Positions 2,525-4,577 of a stretch of DNA of 5,905 bases are shown here, one piece after another. Positions within the stretch are counted from its first letter, which is position 1; the number at the start of each line of letters is the position of its first letter. A model generated the notes under the pieces. That model saw nothing but the letters and a program-made list of their open reading frames with translations, searched no databases and was not told where the DNA came from. Location of the stretch: IMG/VR virus record IMGVR_UViG_2690316227_000007. One strand, 5' to 3'. The stretch comes from a virus. Its lineage: Duplodnaviria > Heunggongvirae > Uroviricota > Caudoviricetes. Position numbers and translations under genes: made by a program.

Positions 2525-2932
2525 ATGGAAACAAAAAATTTAACTATCGGCGAACGCATTAGGTATCGTCGGAAAAACCTCAAACACACCCAAAGGTCTC
2601 TTGCTAAAGCCCTGAAAATCTCCCATGTGTCTGTATCACAATGGGAACGGGATGATAGTGAACCTACAGGGAAGAACCTTTTTGCCCTCAGCAAAGTATT
2701 GCAATGCTCACCAACATGGATTCTATTTGGCGATGAAGACAAGCAACCAACACCACCTGTTGAGAAGCCAGTTGCCTTATCCCCCAAAGAACTAGAGCTC
2801 CTTGAGCTGTTTAATGCACTGCCAGAATCAGAACAGGATACCCAGCTCGCCGAAATGCGAGCTCGAGTAAAAAACTTCAATAAACTCTTTGAAGAATTAC
2901 TAAAAGCCCGTCAGCGGACAAATAAAAGATAA
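2525..2932 (+). CDS. dicA: DicA, XRE-family HTH repressor (CI-like) of the dicB operon, 135 aa
   Basis: ORF METKNLTIGERIRYRRKNLKHTQRSLAKALKISHVSVSQWER... (135 aa) matches my recollection of E. coli Qin DicA almost exactly. HTH_3-type motif (QRSLAKALKISHVSVSQWE). Divergent from dicC. Confidence 0.93.
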   Translation: METKNLTIGERIRYRRKNLKHTQRSLAKALKISHVSVSQWERDDSEPTGKNLFALSKVLQCSPTWILFGDEDKQPTPPVEKPVALSPKELELLELFNALPESEQDTQLAEMRARVKNFNKLFEELLKARQRTNKR

Positions 2933-3413: not shown

Positions 3414-3632
3414 ATGCAGAAACGAGAACCCGTCATCATCGCGCCAGACTATACCGATGATGAACTTTATGAGTGGATGCGCCAGAAAATTAATGCAGCG
3501 CAGGATCTGAAATGGGCCAATGAAGCCAGGGCTAAGCAGGCTGAAAATCTGTCCGCTCTGGAGCAGGATATCACTAATCTGGAAAAAGCAGCGACATTAA
3601 GCATTGCCAGAATGATTACATACCCGCGTTAA
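3414..3632 (+). CDS. ydfC: YdfC, small Qin-prophage protein (72 aa), function unknown
   Basis: Track ORF MQKREPVIIAPDYTDDELYEWMRQKINAAQDLKWANEARAKQAENLSALEQDITNLEKAATLSIARMITYPR with GAGGA 6 nt upstream of the ATG. Position and size match ydfC of the dicB operon. Confidence 0.85.
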   Translation: MQKREPVIIAPDYTDDELYEWMRQKINAAQDLKWANEARAKQAENLSALEQDITNLEKAATLSIARMITYPR

Positions 3633-3973
3633 TAGCTAACCAACGAAGCTAAGGTTGGTAATTAAGGAGTTCTCCACGGATGAGGTGGAGTGCGTGCGCC
3701 GGACACGGGTGAGCATCCGGCACTGACAGTTTACTGAAAGGATATTTCCCTGAAAAGTCAGACCATAACGCGAAAGCGCACGGCGAGGTAGCTGGTTCAT
3801 AGATAGCCTGTCGTTAAATTTTCGTCGACCGTGCGCTTCCGGTTGTGGCAATCCGCGAAATGGCGCGGCGGTAAGTATGGCGGGGTTATTCCTTCCCCCG
3901 TTGAGGACACCGGGTTGTCAGGTTGACCATACGCTTAAGTGACAACCCCGCTGCAACGCCCTCTGTTATCAAT
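3633..3973 (+). other. hairpin-rich untranslated spacer between ydfC and dicF (probable DicF precursor / processing region)
   Basis: No plus-strand ORF over 21 codons with an ATG. Several perfect inverted repeats: 3672-3677/3685-3690, 3698-3703/3716-3721, 3774-3783/3829-3838 (10 bp), 3881-3885/3896-3900, 3912-3920/3940-3948 (9 bp). Confidence 0.5.
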
Positions 3974-4030
3974 TTTCTGGTGACGTTTGGCGGTATCAGT
4001 TTTACTCCGTGACTGCTCTGCCGCCCTTTT
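3974..4030 (+). ncRNA. dicF: DicF small regulatory RNA
   Basis: Sequence TTTCTGGTGACGTTTGGCGGTATCAGTTTTACTCCGTGACTGCTCTGCCGCCC followed by TTTTT matches my recollection of E. coli DicF (about 53 nt). Located between ydfC and dicB as in the Qin dicB operon. Ends are uncertain by a few nt. Confidence 0.85.
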
Positions 4031-4031
4031 T
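3989..4031 (+). terminator. Rho-independent terminator forming the DicF 3' end
   Basis: GGCGG (3989-3993) pairs with CCGCC (4021-4025), followed by C and a T5 run (4027-4031). Inner complementarity CAGT (3997-4000) / ACTG (4012-4015). Confidence 0.6.
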
Positions 4032-4200
4032 AAAGTGAATTTTGTGATGCGGTGAATGCGGCTAAGCGCACGCGGAACAGTTAAAACCAAAAACAGTGTT
4101 ATGGTTGGATTCTCTGTATCCGGCGTTAATTGTTAACTGGTTAACGTCACCTGGAGGCACCAGGCACCGCATCACAAAACTCATTGTTGAGGGCGCGATA

Positions 4201-4389
4201 ATGAAAACGTTATTACCAAACGTTAATACGTCTGAAGGTTGTTTTGAAATTGGTGTCACTATCAGTAACCCTGTATTTACTGAAGATGCCATTAACAAGA
4301 GAAAACACGAACGGGAGTTATTAAATAAAATATGCATTCTTTCAATGCTGGCCCGTTTACGTCCGATACAAAAAGGATGCTGGCAATGA
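4201..4389 (+). CDS. dicB: DicB, cell-division inhibitor (62 aa)
   Basis: ATG at 4201 with GAGGG 7 nt upstream. Product MKTLLPNVNTSEGCFEIGVTISNPVFTEDAINKRK... matches recalled DicB with a few substitutions near the C-terminus. The track ORF 4096..4389 is the same frame extended upstream to a GTG. Confidence 0.9.
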   Translation: MKTLLPNVNTSEGCFEIGVTISNPVFTEDAINKRKHERELLNKICILSMLARLRPIQKGCWQ

Positions 4390-4577
4390 ATACAGCATTT
4401 GCACTTGTTCTGACAGTTTTTCTTGTTTCCGGAGAGCCAGTTGATATTGCAGTCAGTGTTCACAGGACAATGCAGGAGTGTATGACTGCAGCAACCGAAC
4501 AGAAAATTCCCGGTAACTGTTACCCGGTCGATAAAGTTATTCACCAGGATAATATCGAAATCCCGGCAGGTCTTTAA
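4386..4577 (+). CDS. ydfD: YdfD, Qin-prophage lysis protein (63 aa)
   Basis: ATG at 4386-4388 overlaps the dicB stop (ATGA). Product MNTAFALVLTVFLVSGEPVDIAVSVHRTMQECMTAATEQKIPGNCYPVDKVIHQDNIEIPAGL has a hydrophobic N-terminal segment and matches recalled YdfD. An in-frame ATG at 4377 is an alternative start. Confidence 0.85.
   Translation: MNTAFALVLTVFLVSGEPVDIAVSVHRTMQECMTAATEQKIPGNCYPVDKVIHQDNIEIPAGL

Follow-up and report, generated by a model that had tools for sequence, protein, structure and literature searches.

An STnc100/PasD-like RNA fold between dicF and dicB with a lengthened, covarying closing helix that is probably cut by RNase III

DicF and DicB are toxic inhibitors of cell division that are both made from one transcript, so that the way in which this transcript is divided decides their ratio. 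In the window analysed here, a stretch of 5,905 nucleotides of viral DNA (IMG/VR record IMGVR_UViG_2690316227_000007) which carries the early-left and immunity region of a Qin-like lambdoid prophage, the spacer between dicF and dicB is bracketed by a long-range inverted repeat. This raises the question of what the repeat and the sequence enclosed by it are, and whether it is here that the transcript is cut.

The identity of the flanking genes is given by a match of Rfam RF00039 (DicF) to 3975-4026 at 76.7 bits and by a match of the dicB product to Pfam PF05358 (DicB) at 126.9 bits. Positions 3960-4215 have 100% identity with E. coli strain EFF60 and 97.7% with K-12 MG1655, and since there are no indels relative to K-12 a single offset (1645407) places DicF at 3975-4027 and the end of its 72-nt species at about 4046. 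Sequence related to 3960-4215 is present in 4633 of 5426 complete E. coli genomes, at a median of two places per genome. An earlier note on this DNA, made from the letters alone, had the repeat begin just after the DicF terminator and end 10 nt before the dicB Shine-Dalgarno, and this setting is borne out by the two matches and by the GAGG at 4189 (Table 1).

Table 1. Features of the immunity region and of the dicF-dicB spacer, in window coordinates unless another sequence is named.
Feature	Position	Strand	Remarks
dicC	2211-2441	minus	
dicA	2525-2932		followed by the ydfA, ydfB and ydfC ORFs
DicF sRNA, 53-nt form	3975-4027	+	mapped from dicF of NC_000913.3 (1649382-1649434), offset 1645407
U-tract of the DicF intrinsic terminator	4027-4031	+	terminator hairpin ends the 53-nt form
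5' arm of closing helix	4034-4054	+	perfect 4040-4054; A4039 mismatched; 4034-4038 paired
STnc100/PasD-like core	4055-4164	+	from the RF02076 alignment
Core hairpin	4057-4060/4067-4070	+	loop GCUAAG
Core junction helix	4073-4076/4119-4122	+	encloses variable hairpin
Core hairpin	4123-4131/4139-4147	+	
Core hairpin	4150-4154/4160-4164	+	abuts closing helix with no unpaired base
3' arm of closing helix	4165-4185	+	perfect 4165-4179; C4180 mismatched; 4181-4185 paired
dicB Shine-Dalgarno GAGG	4189-4192	+	10 nt past the perfect 3' arm; read from the sequence
dicB coding sequence	4202-4389	+	62 aa and stop; ATG 4202 internal to ORF 4096-4389
dicB in NC_000913.3	1649609-1649797		annotation corresponding to dicB of the window

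There are some further features of this region. From GTG 4096 an ORF of 97 aa runs in frame into dicB, extending it upstream through the structured element described below, and the title of the paper by Cam et al. fits such an extension. In the divergent intergenic region between dicC and dicA there is a near-palindrome at 2446-2485 (20-nt arms, 85%, no spacer), which is probably an operator of the immunity switch. Within an ORF of 347 aa on the minus strand (736-1779), the peptide repeat TENTTEITTENTTEITTEN arises from short tandem DNA repeats at about 1180-1260, which, by analogy with lambdoid replication-initiator genes, may be iteron-like. Genes of this kind are presumably lacking in the K-12 Qin prophage, which would mean that the prophage behind the window is more complete.

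The repeat is made up of TTTTGTGATGCGGTG (4040-4054) and its exact reverse complement CACCGCATCACAAAA (4165-4179), 15 bp with 110 nt between the arms, as the earlier note had read it. In a repeat search the pair reaches 19 nt at 95% (4036-4054/4165-4183), and with RNAduplex the helix goes on to 4034/4185, interrupted only by the A4039·C4180 mismatch and with five further pairs beyond it (4034-4038 with 4181-4185), the paired positions summing to 8219. The window has only three inverted repeats of at least 12 nt with arms at most 400 nt apart, this being one. When perfect inverted repeats with arms up to 400 nt apart were sought in 300 dinucleotide-preserving shuffles of the window, none of the 300 had one of 15 bp, the maximum being 14 bp in 3 shuffles; these shuffles, with the covariation described below, rule out a chance origin.

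Both the minimum-free-energy and the centroid folds retain the helix, whether 4035-4185 is folded (-61.0 kcal/mol, z = -6.7) or the longer 3975-4215, and the K-12 version folds likewise. In K-12 and most relatives the helix is 21 contiguous bp, whereas in the window it is interrupted by the A·C mismatch, which most relatives lack. With the 5-bp hairpin 4150-4164, which it directly adjoins, it makes up approximately two turns of double-stranded RNA, and an intramolecular helix of about two turns (approximately 20 bp) is what a substrate of RNase III is expected to have.

The earlier note had described the 110 nt between the arms as a loop with further hairpins in it. Instead, a match to Rfam RF02076 and covariation point to a conserved STnc100-like fold. 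In a permissive Rfam scan, 4038-4178 matches STnc100 (RF02076) at model positions 21-154 of 206, with 38.6 bits (E = 3.5e-7 for the stretch searched), which is below the gathering threshold of 47 bits. The copies of the Qin, Rac, P1 and L247 types all score 34-43 bits (38.6 in the window, 34.4 in K-12, 42.6 in Rac, 43.0 in the P1-type copy), compared with 67-161 bits for canonical copies, and a relative with the long helix, L013 from Pseudescherichia, passes the threshold at 47.8 bits. That the Qin-type copy falls just below the Rfam threshold would account for the K-12 copy being without annotation.

The window has the architecture of the RF02076 consensus, with a closing helix, a first hairpin, a terminal CCNGG hairpin and the conserved linkers, and the eight innermost pairs of the repeat, 4047-4054/4165-4172, are those aligned with the 8-bp closing helix of that consensus. 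Across 69 distinct relatives, pairing in core helices 3-6 is 91-100%, and double-sided changes occur in them. In the case of the two inner hairpins that had been noticed earlier, CCTGG/CCAGG is as described (4150-4154/4160-4164), but CGTTAA/TTAACG had been placed one base off and is really at 4124-4129/4141-4146, the covariation-supported helix around it being 4123-4131/4139-4147. Taken on sequence and predicted fold, the dicF-dicB spacer is a divergent branch of STnc100/PasD, and the repeat is the closing helix of this fold.

STnc100 is a prophage sRNA family, related according to a 2026 preprint to PasD, which has been detected by Hfq RIL-seq. The features shared by STnc100/PasD and the window are the closing helix GGUG/CACC, an AAU linker, a first hairpin whose loop is of UAAGCG type, and, joined directly to the 3' strand, a terminal hairpin CCNGG-AGGCA-CCNGG. 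They differ in several respects. The first hairpin is GCGGC...GCACGC in the window and CCCCC...GGGG in STnc100, the closing helix has 21 positions rather than 6-10 bp, and the window copy is embedded in an operon without the terminator module, whereas STnc100 is a stand-alone sRNA gene with its terminator. The match stops at model position 154, so that the 3' terminator of the model (positions 155-206) is absent from the window copy and the dicB ribosome-binding site comes next. The 22-nt motif TCACCNGGAGGCACNNGGCACC, common to the window and STnc100, is present at no fewer than 120 loci in each of two collections, IMG/VR viral contigs and species-representative genomes; in the latter the matches listed are mostly from Enterobacterales (Kosakonia, Enterobacter, Pantoea, Rahnella, Klebsiella, Salmonella, and others).

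Other identities for the spacer were considered. A simple consensus scan of 3600-4450 found no promoter-like site on the + strand, and a dicB promoter inside the spacer was rejected on this basis. The single terminator-like match of the scan, 4104-4124, is inside the core rather than after the element; it lies within the variable hairpin, is no better than shuffles, and was not accepted as a terminator. The multi-way junction is somewhat cloverleaf-like, but ARAGORN finds no tRNA in 3900-4300 and there is no CCA end, and a tRNA-like element was therefore discounted.

The length of the closing helix sets the window and its closest relatives apart. Among 179 unique cores from the motif matches listed, it is usually 6-10 bp (range 4-12), and among the matches listed a helix of 15 bp or longer is found only in the branch with the first hairpin GCGGC...GCACGC. 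A second scan, for this hairpin, gave 26 distinct long arm pairs of 15-26 bp. The cognate arms of these 26 pairs have a mean duplex energy of -30.2 kcal/mol (range -35.9 to -26.0), compared with -18.9 kcal/mol for non-cognate combinations, made from arms of different types with left arms differing by at least 4 nt, of which 4.7% reach the worst cognate value.

There are double-sided changes at many positions of the stem. The Qin arms GAUGCGGUG/CACCGCAUC and the arms GGUGUGGUG/CACCACACC found in Scandinavium and Pseudescherichia differ by compensatory changes, and in L173 the GUGAA/UUCAU of the Qin arms is replaced by GCGAA/UUCGC. The outer half of the Klebsiella-type arms (L064, GGCUUUGCAAUACGGUG/CACCGCAUUGCAAAGCC) differs in sequence and still pairs, except for one A·C mismatch. 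In a MAFFT alignment of 69 distinct sequences, scored against a structure specified by the analyst, 92.4% of cells are paired, compared with 34-39% for slid partners; covariation scores 0.203, compared with 0.03-0.07 slid, a value that is reached by 0 of 500 shuffles. Double-sided changes are present at 17 pairs, and RNAalifold independently recovers the inner nine pairs of the helix. The Klebsiella-type 3' arms are one column out of register in this alignment, which makes the 81.5% pairing of the outer helix an underestimate. The long-helix sequences are interrelated and the counts are not of independent events; the substitutions show that the helix has been maintained by compensatory change across prophage lineages and is under clear selection.

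Folding energy does not indicate the strand in the window, the minus strand folding at -58.7 kcal/mol compared with -61.0 kcal/mol for the + strand, and the strand was therefore assigned from G·U pairs in relatives. Within the inner helix these have G·U in 37 cells and are unpaired in 3. Two of the changes seen in K-12, C4050U and C4168U, each turn a pair of the + strand into G·U and would each give an A·C mismatch on the other strand. Such changes, which preserve pairing through G·U, mean that the structure is one of RNA, on the dicB strand.

The same observations bear on the possibility that the feature acts as DNA. It could then be a palindrome bound by a protein, form a cruciform, mark the ends of a small mobile element as its terminal repeats, or link phage gene modules for recombination. 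The element, about 150 bp in length, does lie before unrelated genes, in prophages of the Qin, Rac and P1/P7/D6 types among others, as would a module-boundary sequence. However, its substitutions keep pairing in a manner that suits only one strand, arms of different sequence still pair, the internal hairpins covary, and the published RNA data are rnc-dependent, all of which makes a DNA-level explanation highly improbable.

These published data concern the K-12 locus. A 72-nt form of DicF made from the full-length transcript by RNase III is attributed to Faubladier, Cam and Bouché (1990) by PMC5069750 and PMC9438474, and the RNase III site between dicF and dicB is attributed to the same paper in PMC2777011 and PMC5371410; the 5' end of DicF is made by RNase E according to Balasubramanian (2016) and a 2022 review, citing Faubladier (1990). 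A 2009 review includes the dicA-dicF-dicB intergenic region among the classic RNase III substrates. Going by these citing papers, an RNase III site after DicF has been in the literature since 1990 and is largely already known. If the quoted length is counted from 3975, the 3' end of the 72-nt species is at approximately 4046 (3975 + 72 - 1), the seventh base of the 15-nt 5' arm, these lengths being second-hand.

Gordon (2017) compared per-base RNA-seq coverage between the wild type and an rnc deletion strain, and Table S1 of that study has an entry at location 1649470, 'intergenic dicF-dicB', with 0/0 reads in the two wild-type replicates and 26 in the deletion strain, marked 'Known? Yes'. Converted from NC_000913.3, this location is position 4063 of the window, within the region bracketed by the arms. 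The signal of 26 reads is one of low expression, and the coordinate is a peak of the coverage ratio rather than a cleavage site. All of these rnc-dependence data come from the K-12 locus, which is 97.7% identical to the window.

A 2023 study of the operon (PMC10448788) confirmed an RNase III cut upstream of DicF that gives a 190-nt DicF precursor its 5' end; only this upstream site is treated there, and the downstream one goes unmentioned. The transcripts that it reports are of 813/814, 1,146 and 1,608 nt. Upstream of DicF there is a second inverted repeat (3771-3783/3829-3841, 13 nt, 92%) within a wider stem, 3763-3848, that folds as a long interrupted stem (-37.4 kcal/mol, z = -2.4). A 190-nt precursor ending at 4027-4031 would start at about 3838-3842, within the 3' arm of this stem, which is probably the other published RNase III site.

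Taken together, the evidence makes it probable that the arms are the extended closing helix, or 'processing stalk', of an STnc100/PasD-like RNA placed after the DicF terminator and ahead of dicB, and that this helix is cut by RNase III. Upon read-through of the DicF terminator the arms would pair, over 15 bp, a mismatch and 5 bp in the window and over 21 contiguous bp in K-12. RNase III would then cut the closing helix, in the 5' arm at about 4046 if the quoted length of DicF is followed, and, as the staggered cuts of this enzyme leave 2-nt 3' overhangs (PMC6212723), a second cut would be expected near 4174/4175. The dicB-ydfD message would be left with a leader of about 27 nt and with its ribosome-binding site intact, the 72-nt DicF would perhaps be trimmed back to the terminator hairpin, and a core of about 128 nt (approximately 4047-4174) would be excised. 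The absence of wild-type reads at 4063 suggests that this core is probably unstable, although such libraries often lose small RNAs. The proposal of the earlier note, that the arms pair in read-through transcripts and that RNase III thereby separates DicF from the dicB mRNA, thus finds support in the quoted 72-nt DicF, in the RNA-seq data of Gordon (2017) and in the covariation. The cut may also set the 5' end of the dicB mRNA and its rate of translation, as that note further suggested, and DicB output may be raised or lowered by it.

The helix might mainly serve to release, or to close, a functional STnc100/PasD-like RNA of approximately 4047-4174. RNase III would then excise this core much as it does with rRNA precursors, giving a separate RNA with a role of its own, the separation of DicF and dicB being a by-product. 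The core matches RF02076, in the case of L013 above threshold, and both STnc100 and PasD are reported as prophage sRNAs, the latter seen by Hfq RIL-seq. The quoted 72-nt end lies immediately 5' of the 8-bp closing helix of Rfam, and a cut at the base of this helix would leave a core with a closing helix of canonical length, which, as far as the second-hand length can be relied upon, is suggestive of core release. The core has zero coverage in the wild type and reads only in the rnc deletion strain, which speaks against its persisting as a stable RNA after excision, albeit in libraries from which small RNAs may be lost; the window copy is also without model positions 155-206, which include the terminator, and STnc100 itself has no known function. 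This explanation, which in part overlaps with the processing stalk, appears unlikely as the main one.

A further alternative is that the structure controls the translation of dicB or the stability of its message without being cut, for instance by keeping the ribosome-binding site within or beside a rigid helix. In phage lambda, cIII is controlled by the binding of RNase III without cutting. In the window the extended helix ends 4 nt before the Shine-Dalgarno, and beyond it the U-tract of DicF, 4029-4033, can pair weakly with UUGAG at 4187-4191. This outer pairing consists of A-U and G·U pairs only and is not conserved in the Rac, Klebsiella and other branches, where the ribosome-binding site is 9-45 nt past the helix. 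The idea that the DicF U-tract sequesters the dicB ribosome-binding site was set aside, as the pairing is weak in the window and not conserved, and control without cleavage is considered quite improbable overall.

The context of the element in relatives is in line with a processing stalk. In Rac-type prophages a long-helix element follows a DicF-like RNA with its terminator and comes just before kilR. In one such case (L003, 1452-1691) the order is a DicF-like RNA (41.1 bits, below threshold), a terminator, an STnc100-like element (42.6 bits) and kilR. The Rac-type helix has 10 bp, a bulged A and 12 bp, and in L002, also of Rac type, an IS1 has inserted between the element and kilR. In other lineages the long-helix element is upstream of an Ash/Rha protein, a 94-aa protein, or small hydrophobic proteins. 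The start codon is 32-66 nt after the end of the core (4168 in the window), which is approximately 10-45 nt past the extended helix.

In the P1/P7/D6-type phage-plasmids a short-helix copy, with 9 bp, is found just upstream of a TerB-family gene that follows tRNA-Asn and tRNA-Thr (for example L004, 1501-1616, phages P7 and D6, and many plasmids of about 90 kb). In L247 (8010-8232) and similar IMG/VR loci, an element with a 9-bp helix is immediately upstream of a DicF-like RNA, and not downstream of it. In a crude classification of 213 unique cores, which are related sequences so that the counts are descriptive rather than independent tests, a ribosome-binding site and ORF come first after 48 of 51 long-helix cores and a terminator after none of the 51, while a terminator comes first after 71 of 155 short-helix cores.

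In L023 (3012-3424) a long-helix element precedes an ORF with an Ash/Rha domain, the DNA of which matches isrK (61.5 bits) and C4 antisense RNA (75.7 bits); these matches link the element to a module like P1-type immI or Gifsy isrK. Two or three copies of the STnc100 motif are present within 0.3-4 kb of each other, among the matches listed, in L132, L138, L158, L179, L188, L199, L040, L051, L074, and others, and in four unrelated contigs (L138, L158, L179, and L199) the spacing is an identical 484 bp. Such loci with several copies suggest that the element has been used more than once between small gene cassettes.

The nearest known system is the dicF-dicB RNase III site of K-12 Qin itself, which is the same locus with the same helix and, by the quoted length, has the 72-nt DicF end in the 5' arm. 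The window differs from it in having C rather than T at 4050 and 4168, giving Watson-Crick rather than G·U pairs, C rather than T at 4180, giving a mismatch rather than a pair, and, in the ribosome-binding region, G rather than A at 4193. The hairpin of the phage lambda N leader and the processing stalks of 16S and 23S rRNA are likewise long-range helices, of an early phage operon and of precursor transcripts, that are cut by RNase III, and in lambda an effect of RNase III on the translation of N has been demonstrated. There is no sequence relationship with these, the likeness being that an upstream RNA is removed and a short leader left, or that an enclosed RNA is excised. In the RNase III-matured sRNAs ManS of Salmonella and CJnc190 of Campylobacter (PMC11745405, PMC8687705), it is RNase III, and not RNase E alone, that sets an end of the sRNA within a longer transcript, as it is quoted to do for DicF. 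Unlike these, DicF has an intrinsic terminator as its main 3' end, and the RNase III end is an alternative on read-through transcripts.

What is added here to the known site is that the supposed loop is an STnc100/PasD-like fold, and that its closing helix is specifically lengthened, and covaries, in the branch that is embedded in operons. The RNase III cut would thus fall in a helix that is under selection in many prophages. It is tentatively proposed that the sRNA terminator, stalk, STnc100/PasD fold and ribosome-binding site form a portable phage unit placed before toxic or accessory early genes (dicB, kilR, the Ash/Rha protein, small membrane proteins), which may uncouple these from the upstream sRNA and perhaps also free an RNA of about 128 nt that has gone unnoticed. 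Given that the RNA enclosed in the dicF-dicB spacer has the STnc100/PasD fold, the well-studied dicBF operon could be a tractable system for this fold.
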